This document shows, one piece after another, positions 3,158 through 12,864 of a stretch of DNA of 64,000 bases (positions within the stretch are counted from its first letter, which is position 1; every line of letters starts with the position of its first letter). Source of the stretch: Escherichia coli (GTDB lineage: Bacteria; Pseudomonadota; Gammaproteobacteria; Enterobacterales; Enterobacteriaceae); NCBI RefSeq assembly GCF_050320075.1, contig NZ_CP190021.1, one strand, 5' to 3'. A program made the position numbers and the translations under genes. A model generated the notes under the pieces. That model was not told the origin of the DNA, ran no database searches, and saw only the letters and a list, made by a program, of their open reading frames with translations.

Positions 3158-3750
3158 TGAAATCAGACGAAAAATACCAGGTTCCCGCGTGGATGCGACC
3201 TCTGTTGCCGTTGCTCTGCAACACCGGGGGGAACGATCCGGAAGAACTGCTGAATGATACAGAAACCACTGCCAGTGCGAATGTTGTCCGTTATGTACTG
3301 ATAGTTGCTGTGCGGTCGCAGGTTGATCTGCTGCAGCTTCTGTACAGGAAAGGGCTGTTGCGCACAGAGATACCAGGTGGCTTTTCACCGGAAGAAGCGC
3401 AGGCACTCCTGGATAATCTGGTGCGCAGCCATATCAGCAAGGCGCTGTCGGGCGAGCGAATGGCAGCCCGTGACAGAAATGCCGATCTGGCCTGGATTGG
3501 ACAGCAACTGGTCGATGACGCCTGGTTTGTCCGTGCCACACTGGAAGCGCATGGGATGAGCGTCGGAAATGAGAGTCCCCCTGCTCCGCCGGAGACAATG
3601 CCGGACATACAGACACGGGAACTGGTGATGTTGATCAAGCGACTGGCATCATCGCTGAAAGCGGTGAAACCGGACAGTTGTGTGGTGCGTGAAGCGCAGG
3701 ACTGGCTGCGCGACAGAAAACTTGTGGATATCACAGATATTCTCCGGTGA
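3154..3750 (+). CDS. hypothetical leading-region protein, translationally coupled to psiA
   Basis: ATGA overlap with psiA stop at 3154-3157; GGAG RBS upstream; 198 aa; no recognisable motif. Confidence 0.55.
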   Translation: MMKSDEKYQVPAWMRPLLPLLCNTGGNDPEELLNDTETTASANVVRYVLIVAVRSQVDLLQLLYRKGLLRTEIPGGFSPEEAQALLDNLVRSHISKALSGERMAARDRNADLAWIGQQLVDDAWFVRATLEAHGMSVGNESPPAPPETMPDIQTRELVMLIKRLASSLKAVKPDSCVVREAQDWLRDRKLVDITDILR

Positions 3751-4211
3751 ACCAGGCATGTATATTTTACGCAGGGACACGCCGATCATGATCGTTTCAT
3801 ATCAGGGGTGGTCTGGAGGTCATGCGGCGTGTCCTCTGCACTCGCCGGAATAAGGAAGTCGCCGGCGGCTCCGCTTTTACCCGGCCATGCGGGGCATGGC
3901 CTTGTGGGGTTTCAGCTCTGTGGCCTCAGCGTCGTGTGCGGGCTGTGCCGTGCCTCCATCTTAGCCGGGCTGGCAGGGATGCAAGGGTACGCTTCGCCGC
4001 TGCGGTCACCCGGTCCCTCCTTCCCGTCTGCCGTGATTTTCCGGTCGTTCGTCCGCTCAGGTTTCGCGGCCTCACCCTGCAACTCCCGTCAGCCGTGTGC
4101 GTCAGGCTGCGGCTTCCCTTGCGCCCCTGCATCCCCGCCTTATCGCCCGGCTTTTATGGAGGCACGGCACCGCCCGGTGTCGCAGAACATGTGACTATGG
4201 AGGATTCGGGA

Positions 4212-4712
4212 ATGTCTGTTGTTGCACCTGCTGTATACGTTGGAACCTGGCACAAATACAACTGTGGAAGCATCGCCGGACGCTGGTTTGACCTGACCAC
4301 GTTTGATGATGAGCGCGACTTTTTCGCCGCCTGCCGTGCTCTTCACCAGGATGAAGCCGATCCTGAACTGATGTTTCAGGATTATGAGGGATTCCCGGGG
4401 AATATGGCCTCTGAATGCCATATCAACTGGGCCTGGGTTGAAGGCTTCCGCCTGGCACGGGATGAAGGCTGCGAAGAGGCTTATCGTCTCTGGGTGGAGG
4501 ATACCGGTGAGACGGATTTTGACACCTTCCGCGATGCCTGGTGGGGCGAGGCTGACAGTGAGGAGGCTTTTGCGGTTGAGTTCGCCAGTGATACCGGCCT
4601 GCTGGCTGACGTGCCGGAGACGGTGGCGCTCTATTTTGACTATGAGGCGTATGCGCGGGATTTATTCCTGGACTCCTTCACCTTTATTGACGGTCATGTG
4701 TTCCGTCGGTGA
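4212..4712 (+). CDS. ardA: antirestriction protein ArdA (166 aa, acidic DNA-mimic family)
   Basis: Start at ATG 4212 after GGAGGA RBS; sequence [36 protein letters not shown] and acidic composition match ArdA; the longer track ORF 3822-4712 is an Arg/Pro-rich artefact of the GC-rich leader. Confidence 0.85.
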
Positions 4713-5078
4713 TTTACTCCCCCGCTCCGGCGGGGGTATGGCCTGCCAGGCCGCCGGAAAACCCTGGCAGGCTTACGCCTGCCTGAAATGCAGGAGGGCC
4801 GCGCCTGCGGCGCTGCCCTTCCTGCCCGTCATGGTGTGAGGCATTTTTCTGTTATGTCGTTTCTGTTGTTCTGATTTCCGGAGGCGGGGACACCTTCGGC
4901 TCCCGGCTGCCTGGCGGCATCCGGTCGTCAGGCCCGACTCCGACAGGCAGCTGCTGGCGCACCCGCCAGTCTCCGCCGAACCCGCTGGCGCGGTTTCGGG
5001 CTGCCGCTACGGTCCGATGTCTGAAAAACCAGGCTTGCAGCGACCGTTCCGGTCGCGCCGCCCCTGTCGCGCCGGAAA

Positions 5079-5395
5079 CGGCGCTCCCTGCACACCTGAC
5101 GGTGTGTAAGGCCACTGCGCCTGATGGCGCAGTCAACCCTTCCGCCGCCACCCCTGCGGCCTGTTTCCCGCTGTGGACTTTCCGGGGGCTGGAGTAACCA
5201 CATCCCGTTTCAGCAGTCCAGGGGAAGATATACCGTCCACAAAATTTTTAGCCATAAACCCGGCAAAAAATTTTGCGTCCGCCCCCGGACAGCTGCCCCG
5301 TGACGTGGTGACGGACGCCCCATCGGAAAGGTCCACTGCGGGGAGAAACCCCGAAGAAGTGGACGGCAGAAGGGGCTTTCGCCCCTCCGGGGAGC
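5079..5395 (-). promoter_or_regulatory. conserved structured non-coding element, copy 1 (candidate single-strand promoter / ssi-type element of the transferred strand)
   Basis: About 320 bp that align at roughly 80 percent identity with 7957-8275; frameshifting indels between copies argue against coding; lies directly upstream of ORF 5441. Confidence 0.5.
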
Positions 5396-5440
5396 AACCG
5401 GTCGGCCCGGCGACCTGATTCAGCAGAAGGAGACGTTTTC

Positions 5441-5875
5441 ATGACAGTCAGCAGCACGATTTCCGTTTTTTGCCGCGACGGGGTGTTCCGTACCGTTTAC
5501 TGCCACCTGCACGGGGAGCCGACCTGGAACGGTCGCATCCTGCATACCCACTATGCCACCGGTCAGCAGGCCGAAGCCCTGGTTGAACACGGTGATATCC
5601 GTTGCCTCGGTCCCCGTTGCGACAAACCCGCCGGGCATACGCTTCAGAACCCGGTGGACGGTGTGACGGCTTATTACGGACGTGACAGTGGTTTCCGGAT
5701 GGACAGTGAGGCGCGTGAGTACCGTTCTTTCAGGGAGGCTATTGCCACTGAAAGCACTGAAGAGGTGCGCTTCCATTATGTGTTCATCGACGGCTACTGG
5801 AAGGTGATGTACCGCACGCCGGAAGGCTGGAAGATGAAAGCGCTCGCGCTGGCACTGCGTCGCTGTCCGAAATGA
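5441..5875 (+). CDS. hypothetical protein (144 aa), first gene downstream of conserved element copy 1
   Basis: ORF with AGGAGA RBS (aagGAGAcgttttcATG); Cys/His-containing, no recognisable family. Confidence 0.6.
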   Translation: MTVSSTISVFCRDGVFRTVYCHLHGEPTWNGRILHTHYATGQQAEALVEHGDIRCLGPRCDKPAGHTLQNPVDGVTAYYGRDSGFRMDSEAREYRSFREAIATESTEEVRFHYVFIDGYWKVMYRTPEGWKMKALALALRRCPK

Positions 5876-5968
5876 AAAAAAGGCAGGGCGATAAACCCTG
5901 CCTCTCTCCGCCGGCGCTTCCCCGCCAGGAAGTCCGGCATCTCAATCACTATCTATGGAGATTATGCC

Positions 5969-6235
5969 ATGAGACCATCAATTATCTTCGCAACCGCCGA
6001 GTATGTAAAGCGTCTGCGTGAAGAGTGCCTGCGGGAGAATAAACCCCTGCACCGCCATACCCGCTTCAGACGTCAGGAGCTGGCACAGGATGAGATTAAC
6101 CCGGACGTCCTGGCGATGAGCGGCCATATCGCCAGACGCTGCAGTGAGCAGAAGCGGGTGCGTATCCCCGCTATGAAAGTCAGCGAATGGGGCCACCTGC
6201 TCCGCGCGCTTGAAATTGAGCGGGTCTGCCACTGA
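5969..6235 (+). CDS. hypothetical small basic protein (88 aa)
   Basis: ORF with GGAG RBS 9 nt upstream; Arg-rich; co-oriented directly after ORF 5441. Confidence 0.45.
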   Translation: MRPSIIFATAEYVKRLREECLRENKPLHRHTRFRRQELAQDEINPDVLAMSGHIARRCSEQKRVRIPAMKVSEWGHLLRALEIERVCH

Positions 6236-6299
6236 TTAACCCTTGCCGTCTGCCTGTGCAGGCGGCAGGATACGTTCAGACATCTCACCAGGAGGAACC

Positions 6300-7238
6300 G
6301 TGAGTCAGAAGAAAACCACCACGACGCCCACGCCGCATGATGCCGCGTTCCGGTCGTTCCTGGCGAATCCCGACGTCGCCAGAGATTTTCTGGAACTGCA
6401 TCTTCCGGCGGAGTACCGGCAGTTGTGCGACCTGTCCACGCTGAAGCTGGAACCCGCCACCTTTGTTGAGCCGGACCTGCATCAGTACGCCAGCGATATC
6501 CTCTGGAGTGTGAAAACCACCGGGGGTGAAGATGGCTATGTTTATACGCTCATCGAGCACCAGAGCACCGAAAATCTGTACATGCCTTTCCGCATGTTAC
6601 GTTACAGTGTGGCGGCGATGCAGAGACATCTGGAGCAGCACAAAACGTTGCCACTGGTGATTCCTGTACTGTTCTATCATGGTGAGCGCAGCCCGTACCC
6701 GTACAGCATGAACTGGCTGGACTGTTTTGAGAATCCGGCACTTGCGGCTAAAATATACACAAAGCCGTTTCCGCTGGTTGATATCACTGTCGTTGATGAC
6801 AATGAAATCATGAACCATCGCCGGATGGCCGCACTGACGCTGCTGATGAAGCATATCCGCCATCGTGACATGATGGAGCTGCTGGACAAACTCCCGCAGG
6901 TCATGGTGGAAATTTCAGACGAGCAGGTGCGTGTTCTGATTCATTACATCGTTAACGCAGGGGACTCTGTATCACCGGAATTTATGCGGGCGCTGGCTGA
7001 GCGTCTGCCGCAGCATGAGGATAAACTGATGACTATCGCAGAACGTCTTGAGCAAAAAGGTCGCCAGGAGGGCAGGATGGAAGGACGCATGGAAGGACGC
7101 ATGGAAGGACGCATGGAAGGAGCGCTTGAAAAAGCCCTGGCTATTGCGTGCCAGCTTCAGAAAATGGGGATGACGCCGGAGCAGATTAAGCAGGCTACCG
7201 GACTTTCCGATGACGAACTGAAGAAAATCACTCACTGA
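6300..7238 (+). CDS. Rpn-family (YhgA-like, PD-(D/E)XK) recombination-promoting nuclease / putative transposase
   Basis: GTG start after AGGAGG RBS; N-terminal HDAAFRSFL..ARDFL and core motifs typical of Rpn/YhgA proteins; C-terminal tail domain after a GRME tandem repeat. Confidence 0.8.
   Translation: MSQKKTTTTPTPHDAAFRSFLANPDVARDFLELHLPAEYRQLCDLSTLKLEPATFVEPDLHQYASDILWSVKTTGGEDGYVYTLIEHQSTENLYMPFRMLRYSVAAMQRHLEQHKTLPLVIPVLFYHGERSPYPYSMNWLDCFENPALAAKIYTKPFPLVDITVVDDNEIMNHRRMAALTLLMKHIRHRDMMELLDKLPQVMVEISDEQVRVLIHYIVNAGDSVSPEFMRALAERLPQHEDKLMTIAERLEQKGRQEGRMEGRMEGRMEGRMEGALEKALAIACQLQKMGMTPEQIKQATGLSDDELKKITH
7071..7118 (+). repeat. in-frame 12-bp tandem repeat x4 (ggacgcatggaa) encoding (GRME)4 in the Rpn linker
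   Basis: Three perfect units plus one imperfect unit read directly from sequence. Confidence 0.9.
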
Positions 7239-7249
7239 GTAAACATCAC

Positions 7250-7276
7250 AGCCCGGCAAAATGCCGGGCTTTTTTG
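7250..7276 (+). terminator. Rho-independent terminator after the Rpn gene
   Basis: Hairpin agcccggc-aaaat-gccgggct followed by a T-run. Confidence 0.7.
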
Positions 7277-7299
7277 TCAGCAGGAGCAGAGCAAATAGC

Positions 7300-7458
7300 A
7301 TGACGATTGCAGAACGTCTTATTCAAAAAGGCGCACTTGAAGTGGCGCGGGAAATAGCCTGCCGGCTGCGGGATATGGGCTGGACGCCGGAACGGATTCA
7401 GGAGGCAACCGGACTTTCCGGTGAAGAACTGAAAAAGCTGTTTCCTGATGAGCAGTAG
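7300..7458 (+). CDS. free-standing Rpn C-terminal tail-like small protein (52 aa)
   Basis: MTIAERLIQKG..GWTPERIQEATGLSGEELKKL parallels the Rpn tail MTIAERLEQKG..GMTPEQIKQATGLSDDELKKI; GGAG RBS upstream. Confidence 0.6.
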   Translation: MTIAERLIQKGALEVAREIACRLRDMGWTPERIQEATGLSGEELKKLFPDEQ

Positions 7459-7488
7459 CCTGGCATTCAGCCAGGCTGTGAATCACGC

Positions 7489-7740
7489 TCACACATCCTC
7501 TGCCGTTTCCCCCAGTTCATTTTCCAGTCGCCTGATGATATCTGCCTTACGCATCCCCTGCATGTGAGGCAGCAGGTCACGGACTGAAAGTGCCTGGGTG
7601 GTCCTCCAGACGGTGACGTCCACCTGTTCCGCATTTTCCCAGGCGTGCCATGTTCTCTGCGTCACGCCAAATTCTCTGGCCGCTTTTTCGCGTGACCAGA
7701 GCATGCTTTTTCGCCAGATTCGCAGTTCCCAGCCGGTCAT
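7489..7740 (-). CDS. small HTH DNA-binding regulator (83 aa)
   Basis: HTH-like segment REKAAREFGVTQRTWHAWE; promoter region carries twin palindromes. Confidence 0.6.
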   Translation of the reverse strand: MTGWELRIWRKSMLWSREKAAREFGVTQRTWHAWENAEQVDVTVWRTTQALSVRDLLPHMQGMRKADIIRRLENELGETAEDV

Positions 7741-7754
7741 AAAACACCTTTGAA

Positions 7755-7775
7755 AAAGTGAAAAAACTTCACTTT
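7755..7775. promoter_or_regulatory. palindromic operator-like site AAAGTGAA-N5-TTCACTTT (copy 1)
   Basis: Perfect 8-5-8 inverted repeat just upstream of the HTH gene start. Confidence 0.6.
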
Positions 7776-7821
7776 ATTTTATCATCACAATTGCCAAATC
7801 AGCGCGATAAATAAGTGTAAA

Positions 7822-7842
7822 AAAGTGAAGAAATTTCACTTT
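7822..7842. promoter_or_regulatory. palindromic operator-like site AAAGTGAA-N5-TTCACTTT (copy 2)
   Basis: Second identical 8-5-8 inverted repeat 67 bp from copy 1. Confidence 0.6.
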
Positions 7843-7956
7843 TTTTGCTTGTAAATGTCGTGCGGTTTTCTCTGTTTTCACCTGTGCGGGAGTGGTGTGC
7901 CAGTGACCACCACATGCCATTGTTGTGCCGTCGTTTTTCTTCAGTCGCGCCGTATG

Positions 7957-8275
7957 CGGCGCTCCCTGCACACCTTACGGTGTGTAAGGCCACTGCGCCT
8001 GATGGCGCAGCTGTCTCTGCCTGTCTGCCGCCGCACTGCGGCCTGTTCTCCGCAGACGGACTTTCCGGGGGTACATACATGACCACATCCCGTTTCAGTC
8101 GTCCAGGGGGGAGATGTACCAGCCACAAAACTTTTTGCCGCAGGCGTCAAAAACTTTTGCGTCTGCCCCCGGACAACTGCCCCGTGACGTGGTGAGCGTC
8201 CCCCGTCGGAAAGGTCCACTGCGGGGAAATCCCCGAAGACCCGGACGGCAGAAGGAGCTTCGCTCCTCCGGGAAA
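7957..8275 (-). promoter_or_regulatory. conserved structured non-coding element, copy 2
   Basis: Homologous to 5079-5395; directly upstream of ORF 8317. Confidence 0.5.
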
Positions 8276-8316
8276 TGACCTGGCTGTCCCGGCAGTCGTG
8301 ACGATGAGGAGACAAT

Positions 8317-9168
8317 GTGATGAATCAGACTTTACCCACTGCTGACCTGAATACTGCCGGCACGACAGATGTTATTCCGTCTGTGGCTATCGACCGCATC
8401 ATCGCGCAGCGTAACGAAGGTATTGCACTGTTCATGCAGGCGATGGAATGCCTGGCGACAGCGCGCAAGATTCTGCTCGATGCGTCAGGTGATATTTTTC
8501 TTTACGGGTTTGAAGACTGCGTGACTGATTCCGTTCGTCGCATAGATAAACCGGAAGAAGCGAAAAGGAATATCACCCGTCTTGCCGACCGGAAAATCTG
8601 GGACCGCCTGATGACAGATACGGGCATGTACACCTTCATGAGTTCATGCCAGCGTGATGAGTGGAACAGCCAGCTGATGAGCGACACCTGTCCTGAAATC
8701 ACCCTGGACAATGTACTGGCAACATTCCGCCATCTGAATGCCTGCAAGATGCAGACATTTGAACAGGGACTGATTGATGTCTACCGGAAATTGTCATGGG
8801 ATTACAGAACCAATAATCCCTGCCGTCTGGGTAAGAAAATCATTATTGAAAACCTGCTGTACCGCTGGAGTAACGGGCGTGTGACGCTGGACTGCAGCGG
8901 ACGGGAGGCACTGGATGACCTGGTACGTCCGTTTTATCTGCTGGAGGGGCGCAACGTTCCTGACTTCAGGAACAGTATCGGGGCGCAGTATGGTGAATTT
9001 CTCGGGAACGGCGACAATGTCGGTAAGCTGTTAGAAGGGGAATATTTTACGGTGCGTGGCTACCAGAAAGGGACCGTACACATTGTCTTTAAGCGTTCTG
9101 ACCTTGTTGAAAAACTGAATGATATTATTGCACGGCATTATCCAGGTGCATTGCCGCCACGAGTCTGA
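8317..9168 (+). CDS. hypothetical protein (283 aa), last + strand gene of the leading region before oriT
   Basis: ORF with AGGAGA RBS; adjacent GTG and ATG candidate starts at 8317 and 8320; no confidently recognised domain. Confidence 0.6.
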   Translation: MMNQTLPTADLNTAGTTDVIPSVAIDRIIAQRNEGIALFMQAMECLATARKILLDASGDIFLYGFEDCVTDSVRRIDKPEEAKRNITRLADRKIWDRLMTDTGMYTFMSSCQRDEWNSQLMSDTCPEITLDNVLATFRHLNACKMQTFEQGLIDVYRKLSWDYRTNNPCRLGKKIIIENLLYRWSNGRVTLDCSGREALDDLVRPFYLLEGRNVPDFRNSIGAQYGEFLGNGDNVGKLLEGEYFTVRGYQKGTVHIVFKRSDLVEKLNDIIARHYPGALPPRV

Positions 9169-9180
9169 TTAAACAGAAAA

Positions 9181-9210
9181 GCCCTGGTATTTATGCCGGG
9201 GCTTTTTTTT
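9181..9210 (+). terminator. Rho-independent terminator after ORF 8317
   Basis: Hairpin gccctgg-tatttat-gccggggc followed by T8. Confidence 0.7.
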
Positions 9211-9253
9211 CTGTAATCATCATAATCTCAGAACACGATGTGACATTGTCACA

Positions 9254-9595
9254 TCAATTGTTGTTCATATCGATGCCATCTTTCCTGCCTGAATCTGTCT
9301 TTTTAGGTGCTGTTTTAGAGGAAGAACGGCGGGATGGTTTTTTCGATTCTGCTTCCCGAATAATGTCACGAAGTGCCTTCTCTCCTACTTCATACCCTGC
9401 ATTTTTGAGCGTGTCACGAACATCTGCCAGTGTATAACCCTTTGTCCTTACCAGGACAATAATGTCATCACGAATGGCATCAAGAAAATCACGCAATGTT
9501 TTCCGTTGAGCGGTGAGATCTGGCAATTCCGATAAAGCAGCTTTTGCCAGCTGGATGTCATCATCTGAGTAAAATTTTTTAGAAGCCATTGGCAC
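9254..9595 (-). CDS. hypothetical protein with Lys/Arg/Ser-rich basic C-terminal tail (113 aa), possible DNA-binding protein, directly beside oriT
   Basis: ORF on the opposite strand to the other leading-region genes; basic tail ESKKPSRRSSSKTAPKKTDSGRK. Confidence 0.5.
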   Translation of the reverse strand: MPMASKKFYSDDDIQLAKAALSELPDLTAQRKTLRDFLDAIRDDIIVLVRTKGYTLADVRDTLKNAGYEVGEKALRDIIREAESKKPSRRSSSKTAPKKTDSGRKDGIDMNNN

Positions 9596-9647
9596 TTTCT
9601 CTCCGTTTCATGTTGAAGTCTGATTTTATCATCAAAAACTGACTCCT

Positions 9648-9776
9648 GGCAGGGCTGCGCCCTGCCTCTGCCGTCTGCATAAGACTATGATGCACAAAAA
9701 TAACAGGCTATAATGGCCTGAAAAACGGGACAGGATGTGCAATTGTATAACCGCGCACGCGCGATTATACAATTGC
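9648..9776. promoter_or_regulatory. oriT: origin of transfer (oriT) with predicted nick site on the - strand
   Basis: Inverted repeat ggcagggc-tgc-gccctgcc (9648-9666); 12-bp inverted-repeat arms gcaattgtataa/ttatacaattgc (9739-9776); minus-strand core CATCCTG/TCCCG resembling IncP/IncI nick regions, placing the nick near 9730/9731. Confidence 0.7.
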
Positions 9777-9821
9777 CTCCTGGTCAGGGCTTCGCCCCGA
9801 CACCCCAGTAAGGAGCTGACC

Positions 9822-10154
9822 GTGAGTGATAAACGTCAAAGAAGTGGTAGTGAAAGACGGCAAAAGACGATCCTGAGAGCGGTCCGGTTCTCACCGGATG
9901 AGGATGAAACTATCTGTAAGAATGCTGAAGATTCCGGACTTACTGTATCTGCTTACATCCGAAATGCAGCACTGAATAAGCGAATTAACTCCCGTACAGA
10001 TGATGCTTTTCTGAAGGAGTTAATGAGACTGGGAAGGATGCAGAAGCATCTGTTTGTTCAGGGAAAAAGAACCGGTGACAAGGAATACGCAGAAGTGCTT
10101 GTTGCCATAACCGAACTTACAAATACATTGCGTAAACAGTTAATGGAAGGTTGA
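9822..10154 (+). CDS. nikA: relaxosome accessory protein NikA (ribbon-helix-helix, 110 aa)
   Basis: GTG start after AAGGAG RBS, next to oriT and upstream of the relaxase; expected size. Confidence 0.8.
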   Translation: MSDKRQRSGSERRQKTILRAVRFSPDEDETICKNAEDSGLTVSAYIRNAALNKRINSRTDDAFLKELMRLGRMQKHLFVQGKRTGDKEYAEVLVAITELTNTLRKQLMEG

Positions 10155-10164
10155 GGATTCTCCG

Positions 10165-12864
10165 GTGAATGCAGTCATTCCGAAAAAGAGAAGGGACGGC
10201 AAGTCTTCGTTCGAAGACCTGGTATCCTACGTCTCTGTCCGGGATGACATGACCGATGAGGAACTGGATTTATCTTCTTCTTCGCAGGCTGAACAACCGC
10301 ACCGAAGCCGTTTCAGTCGCCTTGTTGATTATGCGACACGTCTTCGAAATGAGTCATTCGTGGCGCTGGTTGATGTCATGAAGGACGGCTGCGAATGGGT
10401 CAACTTTTATGGTGTCACCTGCTTTCATAACTGTACTTCTCTTGAAACTGCCGCTGCAGATATGGAGTACATTGCCCGGCAGGCACACTATGCAAAAGAT
10501 GACACTGACCCTGTTTTTCACTACATCCTTTCCTGGCAGTCACATGAAAGCCCGCGTCCGGAACAGATTTATGACAGTGTACGTCATACGCTGAAATCAC
10601 TCGGCCTTGCCGACCATCAGTATGTCTCTGCCGTGCATACTGATACAGATAATCTGCACGTCCATGTGGCTGTTAACCGGGTACACCCTGAAACGGGTTA
10701 TCTGAACCGGTTATCATGGAGTCAGGAAAAACTCAGTCGTGCCTGCCGTGAGCTTGAACTGAAGCATGGTTTTGCTCCGGATAACGGTTGCTGGGTCCAT
10801 GCGCCGGGAAATCGTATCGTTCGCAAAACTGCCGTTGAACGTGATCGCCAGAACGCCTGGACACGCGGAAAAAAACAAACTTTTCGTGAGTATGTTGCGC
10901 AGACAGCGGTCGCTGGTTTACGCAGTGAACCTGTACATGACTGGTTATCCCTGCATCGTCGTCTTGCGGAAGATGGTCTGTACCTGTCTCAGATGGACGG
11001 AAAATTTCTGGTGATGGATGGCTGGGATCGCAACAGGGAAGGTGTACAGCTTGACTCGTTTGGTCCCTCCTGGTGTGCAGAAAAACTCATGAAAAAAATG
11101 GGTGACTACACGCCAGTGCCAAAAGACATTTTCAGCCAGGTGGAAGCACCAGGACGCTATAATCCGGACTTCATTGCAGCTGATGTTCGCCCGGAAAAAA
11201 TCGCTGAAACAGAAAGTCTGCAGCAGTATGCCTGTCGTCATCTTGGAGAACGTCTGCCGGAAATGGCACGGGAAGGACGGCTGGAAAACTGCCTGGCTAT
11301 TCACCGCACACTGGCTGAAGCGGGATTATGGATGCGTGTTCAGCATGGTCACCTGGTTATCTGTGACGGTTATGATCATAACCAGACTCCCGTTCGTGCT
11401 GACAGCGTATGGTCACTGCTGACGCTCGACAATGTGAATCAACTCGATGGTGGCTGGCAGCCTGTACCAACAGATATTTTCCGCCAGGTTACGCCAACAG
11501 AACGCTTCCGTGGTCGTCGTATGGAGAGCTGTCCTGCGACCGATAAAGAATGGCACCGTATGCGTACAGGTACGGGGCCGCAGGGGGCTATCAAACGCGA
11601 ACTGTTTTCTGACAAAGAAAGTCTGTGGGGATACAGCATCAGCCATTGTAGCCCTCAGATTGAAGAAATGATCACACAGGGTGAGTTTACCTGGCAGCGT
11701 TGTCATGAGTTGTTTGCACAACAGGGACTGATGCTACAGAAACAACATCACGGGCTTGTTGTCGTTGATGCTTTTAATCATGAGCAAACGCCGGTGAAAG
11801 CCAGCAGCATTCATCCTGATCTGACACTGGGGCGTGCGGAGCCACAGGCCGGACCTTTTGTGAGTGCTCCAGCAGATTTGTTTGACAGGGTGCAACCTGA
11901 AAATCGCTATAACCCGGAGCTGGCTGTCAGTGACAGGTACGGGGTCAGCAGTAAACGTGACCCAATGCTGCGCCGGCAGCGACGTGAAGCCAGGGCTGAG
12001 GCCCGTGCTGACCTGCGTGCCCGCTATCTGGCATGGCGTGAACAATGGCGTAAACCGGATCTGCGTTATGGGGAACGTTGTCGGGAAATTCATCAGGCAT
12101 GCCGTCTGCGGAAGTCACACATTCGTGCGCAGTACGATGATCCGGCATTACGTAAGCTGCATTATCACATTGCAGAAGTTCAGCGAATGCAGGCATTGAT
12201 CAGGCTGAAAGAAGACATCAGGGATGAGCGACAGAAACTTATTGCTGACGGGAAATGGTATCCACCCTCTTACCGTCAGTGGGTCGAAATTCAGGCTGCT
12301 CAGGGAGACAGGGCTGCTGTATCGCAGTTGAGAGGCTGGGATTATCGCGATCGCCGTAAAGACAAGTCACGCACAACGACGACAGACCGCTGTGTCGTGC
12401 TTTGTGAACCGGGCGGAACGCCGGTATACGGTAATACCGGTGATCTCGAGGCCCGTCTGCAGAAGAACGGGAGTGTTCGTTTCCGTGACCGTCGGACGGG
12501 AGAGTTTGTCTGTACGGATTATGGTGACAGAGTTGTTTTCCGTAATCACCATGACCGCAATGCGCTGGCAGATAAACTGGATTTGATTGCACCGGTATTA
12601 TTCGGGCGTGATCCACGCATGGGGTTTGAACCAGAAGGAAACGACAAACAATTTAACCAGGTCTTTGCTGAAATGGTTGCCTGGCATAATGTGACAGGCC
12701 GTACCGGTCACGAAGACTACAGGATTACGCGACCGGACGTGGATCATCACCGTGAAGGAAGTGAACGCTACTACCGCGATTATATCGCGGCGAACAGCAA
12801 CGATGACGCATCACTGCCTCCGCCGGAGCAGGATAAACGCTGGGAACCGCCTTCTCCAGGTTAA
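10165..12864 (+). CDS. nikB: conjugative relaxase NikB (899 aa)
   Basis: Relaxase histidine triad HTDTDNLHVHVAVN; size and position match the IncI1 relaxase. Confidence 0.9.
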   Translation: MNAVIPKKRRDGKSSFEDLVSYVSVRDDMTDEELDLSSSSQAEQPHRSRFSRLVDYATRLRNESFVALVDVMKDGCEWVNFYGVTCFHNCTSLETAAADMEYIARQAHYAKDDTDPVFHYILSWQSHESPRPEQIYDSVRHTLKSLGLADHQYVSAVHTDTDNLHVHVAVNRVHPETGYLNRLSWSQEKLSRACRELELKHGFAPDNGCWVHAPGNRIVRKTAVERDRQNAWTRGKKQTFREYVAQTAVAGLRSEPVHDWLSLHRRLAEDGLYLSQMDGKFLVMDGWDRNREGVQLDSFGPSWCAEKLMKKMGDYTPVPKDIFSQVEAPGRYNPDFIAADVRPEKIAETESLQQYACRHLGERLPEMAREGRLENCLAIHRTLAEAGLWMRVQHGHLVICDGYDHNQTPVRADSVWSLLTLDNVNQLDGGWQPVPTDIFRQVTPTERFRGRRMESCPATDKEWHRMRTGTGPQGAIKRELFSDKESLWGYSISHCSPQIEEMITQGEFTWQRCHELFAQQGLMLQKQHHGLVVVDAFNHEQTPVKASSIHPDLTLGRAEPQAGPFVSAPADLFDRVQPENRYNPELAVSDRYGVSSKRDPMLRRQRREARAEARADLRARYLAWREQWRKPDLRYGERCREIHQACRLRKSHIRAQYDDPALRKLHYHIAEVQRMQALIRLKEDIRDERQKLIADGKWYPPSYRQWVEIQAAQGDRAAVSQLRGWDYRDRRKDKSRTTTTDRCVVLCEPGGTPVYGNTGDLEARLQKNGSVRFRDRRTGEFVCTDYGDRVVFRNHHDRNALADKLDLIAPVLFGRDPRMGFEPEGNDKQFNQVFAEMVAWHNVTGRTGHEDYRITRPDVDHHREGSERYYRDYIAANSNDDASLPPPEQDKRWEPPSPG

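Follow-up and report, generated by a model that had tools for sequence, protein, structure and literature searches.

What might a gene right beside an origin of transfer (oriT) do for DNA that is just entering a new cell? The question is raised by ygfB, a gene in a 64-kb stretch of Escherichia coli DNA (contig NZ_CP190021.1; below, the window) that comprises the leading region of an IncI1/I-gamma conjugative plasmid, with oriT just upstream of nikA. An earlier note, made from the letters of the window without database searches, had left the gene without a family and proposed an anti-defence or establishment factor. We identified its product as a member of the DUF4942 family behind a putative single-strand promoter, and found the methyltransferase label carried by several of its relatives to be wrong for it. 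Our tentative reading, to which we give somewhat less than an even chance, is that YgfB is a non-catalytic DNA-binding or targeting protein that helps incoming DNA to evade restriction or to become established.

The protein carries a single DUF4942 domain (PF13708; i-Evalue 3.2e-50) at residues 91-276, matching positions 5-189 of the 190 in the model. Together with the 3209 representative clusters retrieved at E<=1e-3 by an exhaustive profile search, this match places the open reading frame (ORF) well beyond chance. The frame is open over 8317-9168 on the plus strand, and the earlier note had counted 283 amino acids (aa) from the alternative GTG start at 8317; the ORF stands, but RefSeq begins it at ATG 8320 (282 aa), and homologues align from the methionine of that codon. 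A strong terminator had been claimed as well, in agreement with the downstream hairpin and T8 run (-23.4 kcal/mol, z=-5.97, 0/200 shuffles as good). Because this terminator follows the gene and a single-strand promoter precedes it, ygfB is a monocistronic unit in the orientation readable from the transferred strand (T-strand), and the nearest such unit to oriT. Its stop codon lies 571 bp from the oriT inverted repeat, close to the roughly 600 bp given before; it is not the last gene before oriT, as had been stated, since the mobC-like yggA intervenes on the minus strand. Counted from oriT, ygfB is the second ORF and the first in T-strand orientation, and it is the oriT-nearest gene among those transcribable from the incoming strand.

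Directly upstream lies an element that the earlier note had correctly described as the second copy of a conserved sequence. It is 81.5% identical over 335 nt to a sister copy in the window, and a third copy (~80% identical) precedes ssb in the same plasmid type, outside the window's left end. Both copies of the window are 74-80% identical to two F leading-region sites, which precede F ssb and the ygeA/yubP genes and at which Frpo2 and Frpo1, respectively, are located (PMC9849209). Folded as single-stranded DNA (ssDNA), the minus strand of 7930-8320 reached a predicted -110 kcal/mol, compared with -72 +/- 4.8 for shuffles (z=-8.0). The main imperfect hairpin stem covers 8057-8218 with 61 pairs and has its apex at 8140-8145 of the minus strand. 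This hairpin is upstream of and co-oriented with ygfB, and since the gene is on the plus strand, the minus strand is the template. A scan of 3500-10500 against Rfam gave no match.

The closest published counterpart is pESBL. By RNA-seq of fresh pESBL transconjugants, Wen et al. 2025 found six strongly induced leading-region operons with a hairpin before each (PMC12672017). Three of these hairpins are the Frpo-homologous ssi1-3 sites of ColIb-P9, termed class 1, while those of klcA and ardA form class 2 and that of M.EcoGIX class 3; all six starts were mapped by 5' rapid amplification of cDNA ends (5'RACE), class 1 gave the highest transcription, and transcription proceeded from ssDNA in the recipient until ended by conversion to double strand (PMC12672017). 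The pESBL-EA11 gene order equals that of the window, and we found exactly three element copies there, upstream of ssb, of the 144-aa ORF and of the DUF4942 gene. Because three class 1 elements match three homologous copies, there is little doubt that the element before ygfB is one of ssi1-3, and we therefore infer that ygfB is among the six zygotically induced units. The pESBL copy before the DUF4942 gene is 98.7% identical to the window's element and the two proteins share 279/282 residues; by this near-identity, single-strand transcription and its shut-off should apply to the window's copy too, and the entry-phase steps proposed below are taken from the published pESBL work.

The wider family shows how typical this gene is. 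DUF4942 proteins go by the name YgfB in R64 and YdiA elsewhere; a word-indexed search collected 514 clusters of them, and most members in the profile search stand alone at 260-290 aa. Homologues occur in at least 5000 plasmid records of PLSDB, 92% of them conjugative, and in 64 phage records. Samuel et al. 2024 list them as family 24 of Supplementary Table 1, an uncharacterised leading-region family of 2171 members with median position 1 and strand +1. RefSeq DUF4942/YgfB proteins are 99-100% identical to that of the window and share its size, stand-alone architecture, oriT-side position and orientation, and the window's ygfB is, as far as its sequence tells, a typical member that does not differ from the catalogued ones. 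The earlier note's inability to place the protein, owed to the limits of an unaided reading of sequence, is overcome by this clear membership and was right only at the level of function.

The homology and structure searches that had been called for thus yielded a family but no solved structural relative. NCBIfam and PADLOC gave no meaningful match to the ygfB product, and the PDB sequence search, with the single sequence and with a profile, found nothing better than E=0.24. An AlphaFold2 model built with 22 homologues (predicted local distance difference test (pLDDT) 83.8; predicted template modelling score (pTM) 0.69) shows a disordered N-terminus of ~20 residues, a helical part (~21-158) with two long helices and an alpha/beta part (~173-273). 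Foldseek against AFDB50 returned 387 matches at E<=1e-3 with template modelling scores up to 0.91, the best 50 of which were all DUF4942/YgfB/YdiA-type proteins or named after fused relatives, and a search of the model against solved structures returned no relative. As modelled, the DUF4942 fold is therefore without a solved relative. The isoelectric point (pI) is 6.0 overall and 9.0 in the basic C-terminal half, compared with 4.1 for the window's ArdA; being near-neutral rather than acidic, YgfB is not a DNA mimic. Over 42 sequences, down to 26% identity, D90, W94, G150, L158, P167, D200, L201, H254 and N267 are invariant and R31, S159, W160, N165, R203, D215 and R217 nearly so. This conserved set of Asp, His, Asn and Arg residues keeps an enzymatic activity in play as a possibility.

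An obvious candidate activity is DNA methylation. Close homologues are named 'Methyltransferase' or 'Restriction methylase' in UniProt and AFDB, and PHROG 6263, which YgfB matches, is labelled 'DNA methyltransferase'; the match, however, spans only positions 26-286 of 548. The sequence of YgfB holds neither the S-adenosylmethionine-binding motif I nor a (D/N/S)PP(Y/F/W) motif IV, and we found no methyltransferase Pfam match and no Rossmann-fold match in the structure search. The idea of YgfB as a METHYLTRANSFERASE was rejected: the names originate with relatives that have a catalytic domain fused to DUF4942. For stand-alone YgfB the label is wrong, and the proposal that YgfB itself is a DNA methyltransferase is effectively refuted. 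Similarly, no Lar domain stands behind the name 'Lar family restriction alleviation' of a phage homologue.

The fused relatives are informative about what DUF4942 may do. In proteins of 455-560 aa, DUF4942 is N-terminal and followed by a domain that bears the motifs VLEPSAGxGA and MNPPF; the protein of Bacillus phage SPR has the opposite order, with a methylase (Pfam Dam match) at the N-terminus and DUF4942 at the C-terminus. By PHROG scans, the methylase module of the SPR enzyme seems to be related to that of the enzymes from proteobacterial phages, and this module also matches giant phage proteins of 1300-3900 aa. The fusions of PHROG 6263 (Pseudomonas phages phiPSA1 and MR15 gp23c) and PHROG 32703 (SPR spr_91) have a homologous DUF4942 with the same invariant residues as the stand-alone form (D90, W94, G150, P167, D200, H254, N267), and phage and integrative and conjugative element fusions, like plasmid ygfB, reside in early or anti-restriction regions of mobile elements. 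Unlike them, plasmid YgfB lacks the gamma-class N6-adenine methyltransferase domain (EPSAGxG, NPPF/Y) and cannot methylate. The AlphaFold2 model of a 467-aa fusion contains two confident domains; its linker has low confidence and its pTM is 0.53, so the module is predicted to be tethered rather than integrated. The fused partner thus appears to be a minimal gamma-class N6-adenine DNA methylase with no recognition domain of its own, flexibly tethered to DUF4942. Methylases of this kind require a recognition domain, in cis or from HsdS. Because the fusion methylase has nothing else besides DUF4942, the latter would supply substrate binding or targeting; because the arrangement is tethered and stand-alone forms dominate, it probably works alone as well.

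These fusions equally raise the possibility that YgfB acts by recruiting or activating a separate methylase on the incoming strand, either of the M.EcoGIX type or the host's Dam or HsdM. DUF4942 is repeatedly fused or adjacent to DNA adenine methylases, and restriction alleviation through enhanced modification has a precedent in Ral/Lar. IncI plasmids encode an M.EcoGIX-type single-strand adenine methylase in the same leading region, and the substrate of this enzyme, in the recipient, is the incoming strand (PMC7736820). In the window, however, no ORF with NPPF, NPPY or DPPY was found near ygfB, and the only amino-methylase of the plasmid is the M.EcoGIX homologue, a beta-class enzyme (DPPY) rather than a gamma-class one as in the fusions, which lies ~13 kb away under a promoter of a different class. 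M.EcoGIX activity has moreover been reconstituted with Pol I and without YgfB, and the surroundings of the pOXA-48 homologue hold no methylase motif. We therefore regard a methylase helper as unlikely.

Our preferred reading, a DNA-binding or targeting protein that does not itself catalyse, can be spelled out as follows. The T-strand would enter the recipient 5' end first from oriT, the ssi hairpin would form on it, and host RNA polymerase would start there and read rightwards over ygfB to the terminator. The burst should be strong but transient, as synthesis of the complementary strand would destroy the hairpin. YgfB may then act as an autonomous two-domain module, helical in its N-terminal half and basic alpha/beta in its C-terminal half, in which DUF4942 would provide nucleic-acid binding or targeting. 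Made first in the recipient, it could bind the incoming DNA or a DNA-processing intermediate or complex, and so help the plasmid to escape restriction and to establish itself. Once the plasmid is double-stranded, a divergent helix-turn-helix (HTH) protein might repress conventional promoters through two candidate palindromic operators. The anti-defence or establishment role put forward earlier agrees with this context (T-strand orientation, class 1 promoter, position-1 family, methyltransferase fusions), but no such activity was reported in the literature searched, and the known anti-restriction families (ArdA, ArdB/KlcA, ArdC, Ocr-type) gave no NCBIfam, PHROG-function, PADLOC or structural match. 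Like the genes assigned by Samuel et al. 2024 to an 'anti-defence island', ygfB is an early ORF in T-strand orientation behind a Frpo-type promoter; leading-region position by itself is no proof of anti-defence activity.

Several observations weigh against this reading. Full-text literature searches on DUF4942, ygfB and ydiA found no functional study, and the case for DNA binding consists of domain logic and charge. D90, D200, D215, R217, H254 and N267 would equally fit an enzyme or a conserved protein partner, and such strongly conserved polar residues are unlike a variable sequence-recognition domain. Fusions in 'polyvalent' mobile-element proteins can join independent effectors of one conflict instead of parts of one machine. 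The ~15 kb examined around the pOXA-48 homologue contained no amino-methylase motif, so that the methylation link is not universal. A linear scan of both strands of the promoter element for canonical -35/-10 hexamers found no pair reaching 8/12, and a standard scan was negative too; the promoter assignment therefore rests on homology and published mapping. Finally, transposon-directed insertion site sequencing (TraDIS) of the I-complex plasmid pMS7163B in laboratory E. coli did not name the gene among those needed for conjugation, although its carriage by that plasmid is unconfirmed (PMC10286972). Absence from a laboratory-strain list would be expected for a counter-defence gene.

The conserved residues also bear on a proposal in which DNA binding plays no part and the target of YgfB is a host protein of defence or DNA processing, which it would bind and neutralise. 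Leading genes behind ssDNA promoters include inhibitors of this kind, for example PsiB and ArdA; the residues of YgfB are strongly conserved across distant hosts in a fold without a solved relative, and the methylase fusion could simply unite two independent anti-restriction tools. Against this, YgfB is not acidic and hence no DNA mimic, it matches no PADLOC or known anti-restriction family, and a spread from Bacillus phages to Proteobacteria would demand a very conserved target. We give this proposal only a small chance. Doubtful, yet worth stating, is a bolder version of the counter-defence idea: DUF4942 would be a new kind of effector, with a fold that has no solved representative, acting within minutes of entry without methylating. 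Such an effector might cap or coat the incoming strand or a single-/double-strand junction, or redirect a host enzyme, thereby blocking nuclease-based defence, and phages would repeatedly have joined the same module to promiscuous adenine methylases.

The location of ygfB less than 600 bp from oriT, adjoining a mobC-like gene, could also suggest a relaxosome or transfer accessory factor that works in the donor. Yet transcription of ygfB, from a promoter active on ssDNA only, leads away from the relaxosome genes; homologues occur in phages and at sites without oriT, and that of pOXA-48, with ssb and klcA-type genes around it, is 6 kb distant from the relaxase. The gene is also missing from the conjugation genes of the TraDIS study, subject to the same reservation about carriage. 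A donor-side function is, in our judgement, very improbable.

Next to the element lies the divergent HTH gene, whose counterparts form family 22 of Samuel et al. 2024 (2333 members, position 2, opposite strand, aca6-like). Between it and ygfB, a repeat search found two palindromes of the form AAAGTGAA-N5/6-TTCACTTT, the first of which is overlapped by sigma-70-like hexamers at 7758-7785 on the plus strand. Gene and palindromes look like an Aca-style repressor-operator pair acting on ygfB in the double-stranded phase. From this layout we infer a regulatory role: the HTH protein probably governs the promoter(s) that the locus uses while double-stranded, and ygfB is probably under dual control by the single-strand promoter and by the HTH protein with its candidate operators. 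The 65-aa 'hypothetical protein' that RefSeq annotates at 7774-7971 on the minus strand, where it overlaps both palindromes as well as the beginning of the ssi element, has the look of an annotation artefact.

Tight pairing with an HTH gene and palindromic candidate operators would also suit a selfish, addiction-type module held in check by the HTH protein, or else a dispensable passenger. Some leading-region genes of I-complex plasmids are indeed toxic on overexpression (PMC10286972), and ygfB has no phenotype on record. Thousands of conjugative plasmids, however, have kept the gene as the first in T-strand orientation, and an ssDNA promoter of its own speaks for an early function under selection. 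We consider an addiction module or passenger decidedly improbable.

Homologues in other elements widen the setting. In pOXA-48-type IncL plasmids, the homologue, co-oriented towards the relaxase, has ssb, klcA-type, DUF1380, JAB/RadC, DUF3085 and Hha genes as its leading-region neighbours. A hairpin was looked for upstream and none was seen (z=-1.25), so that the promoter linkage was not found in the single non-IncI plasmid examined. Halomonas phage QHHSV-1 has a stand-alone copy after three methylase genes, and the fusion of Pseudomonas phage MR15 lies within a stretch holding several other annotated methylase genes. A Burkholderia island places a DUF4942 gene beside DUF932, YqaJ, HTH and H-NS genes, and in Methylobacterium a fusion sits in a long one-directional array of small genes (DUF5983, DUF3150, AAA/DUF2201, PAPS reductase, RusA). 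For three distant homologues, most of the metagenomic neighbourhoods were too short to be informative. Across these contexts, the common denominator is an entry or early module of mobile elements.

Two further loci stand apart. In IncHI2 plasmids (NZ_CP027411.1, 6798-8003 of the locus), a distant DUF4942 gene and the gene for a 401-aa coiled-coil (SMC-like) protein overlap at the start of the latter, which suggests a two-gene unit unlike the IncI arrangement. In Salmonella Infantis SPI-3, next to rhuM, a homologue 35% identical to YgfB is apparently split into two annotated ORFs (9001-9795 of the locus); it probably explains the name 'C-terminal region of SugR' in the table of Samuel et al.

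Three known systems serve for comparison. As with ygfB, the F plasmid uses an oriT-proximal class 1 promoter, Frpo1, to drive its first leading genes, ygeA/ygeB (yubP, DUF932); the promoter sequences are homologous, the downstream genes are unrelated, and no DUF4942 gene was found in the F leading region. Loss of Frpo1 or of ygeA, its first gene, lowers the conjugation efficiency of F (PMC9849209). M.EcoGIX of pESBL, an ssDNA-specific adenine methylase from the same plasmid type, protects against restriction and is expressed in the recipient from the strand that enters. It differs from YgfB in being a beta-class catalytic enzyme behind a class 3 promoter ~13 kb further from oriT, and the two share neither sequence nor fold. 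ArdA and KlcA (ArdB) resemble ygfB in leading-region location, early expression and presumed restriction evasion; they have no sequence or structural similarity to YgfB, which lacks the acidic mimic character.

Many IncI1/I-gamma plasmids, from E. coli as well as from Salmonella, carry the stretch 7957-9168 at 100% identity; as a query it matched 2036 PLSDB records, 1902 of them conjugative. In the first 13 kb of the window, the genes run in the order ParB-like (99-1952), psiB, psiA, a 209-aa ORF, ardA, the 144-aa ORF, an Rpn nuclease gene, the small HTH gene on the minus strand, ygfB, the mobC-like gene on the minus strand, nikA, nikB and, again on the minus strand, trbC. The annotation of pND11_107 gives the corresponding stretch as ssb - DUF905 - ParB - psiB - psiA - ArdA - ... 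- Rpn - HTH - DUF4942 - MobC - nikA - nikB - trbC. In R64, yggA is the first gene of the leading region (PMC6112013). The features of the ygfB locus are collected in Table 1.

Table 1 Features of the ygfB locus, with positions in the window.
Feature	Position	Strand	Basis and remarks
Sister copy of the promoter element	5066-5391	-	Sequence homology; upstream of the 144-aa ORF (5441-5875)
HTH regulator gene, 83 aa, divergent	7489-7740	-	RefSeq 'helix-turn-helix transcriptional regulator'
Two palindromes, candidate operators	7753-7778, 7819-7845	.	Repeat search; 67 bp apart
Putative class 1 ssDNA promoter element, oriT-adjacent copy	7944-8272	-	Homology; active form would be the transferred-strand hairpin
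Ribosome-binding site GAGGAG	8306-8311	+	Read from the sequence; 8 nt upstream of ATG 8320
ygfB (DUF4942 gene)	8320-9168	+	RefSeq WP_001077023.1 'DUF4942 domain-containing protein'; 282 aa
Intrinsic terminator, GC-rich hairpin and T8	9173-9214	+	RNA fold
mobC-like gene yggA	9254-9595	-	ORF list and RefSeq; between ygfB and oriT
oriT inverted repeat, 18-nt arms	9739-9776	.	Repeat search; nikA/nikB annotated directly downstream

Some further observations concern the neighbours. The GC-rich region upstream of ardA (3760-4245) has no homology to the ssi copies; by its position it is the counterpart of the class 2 single-strand promoter reported for ardA and klcA in pESBL. The 144-aa ORF behind the sister element has a pI of 8.3 and no NCBIfam match; overexpression of '810', which follows ardA on a related I-complex plasmid and may correspond to the 144-aa ORF, is toxic (PMC10286972). 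The Rpn nuclease gene contains a perfect 12-nt tandem repeat (ATGGAAGGACGC, 3.8 copies) at 7077-7121 that encodes MEGR repeats and is possibly a slippage-variable tract. Just 3' of the Rpn gene, a 65-aa ORF (7261-7458) is a diverged duplicate of the C-terminal end of Rpn; the two are linked by the repeats 7029-7060/7300-7331 and 7117-7225/7328-7436, and the ORF has weak NCBIfam Rpn matches. The gap that separates the ygfB terminator from the stop codon of the convergently oriented mobC-like gene holds the palindrome GATGTGACATTGTCACATC (9237-9255; 8-bp arms), which could be a protein-binding site or the yggA terminator.

Existing catalogues cover the gene and its family as well as its position and promoter, but not its biochemical function. 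To this our analysis adds a corrected methyltransferase label, a fold without a solved relative, the likely nature of the fused methylase and a probable dual control. The gene is carried by IncI1, IncL/M and many other resistance plasmids, and in IncI plasmids it is the first gene that a recipient can read, behind the promoter class reported as the strongest; the plasmid presumably depends on YgfB in the opening minutes of its establishment. Among the gaps still left in the picture of leading regions as anti-defence islands, the activity of YgfB is one of the largest; knowing it could reveal a new route of restriction evasion and a possible target against plasmid spread.

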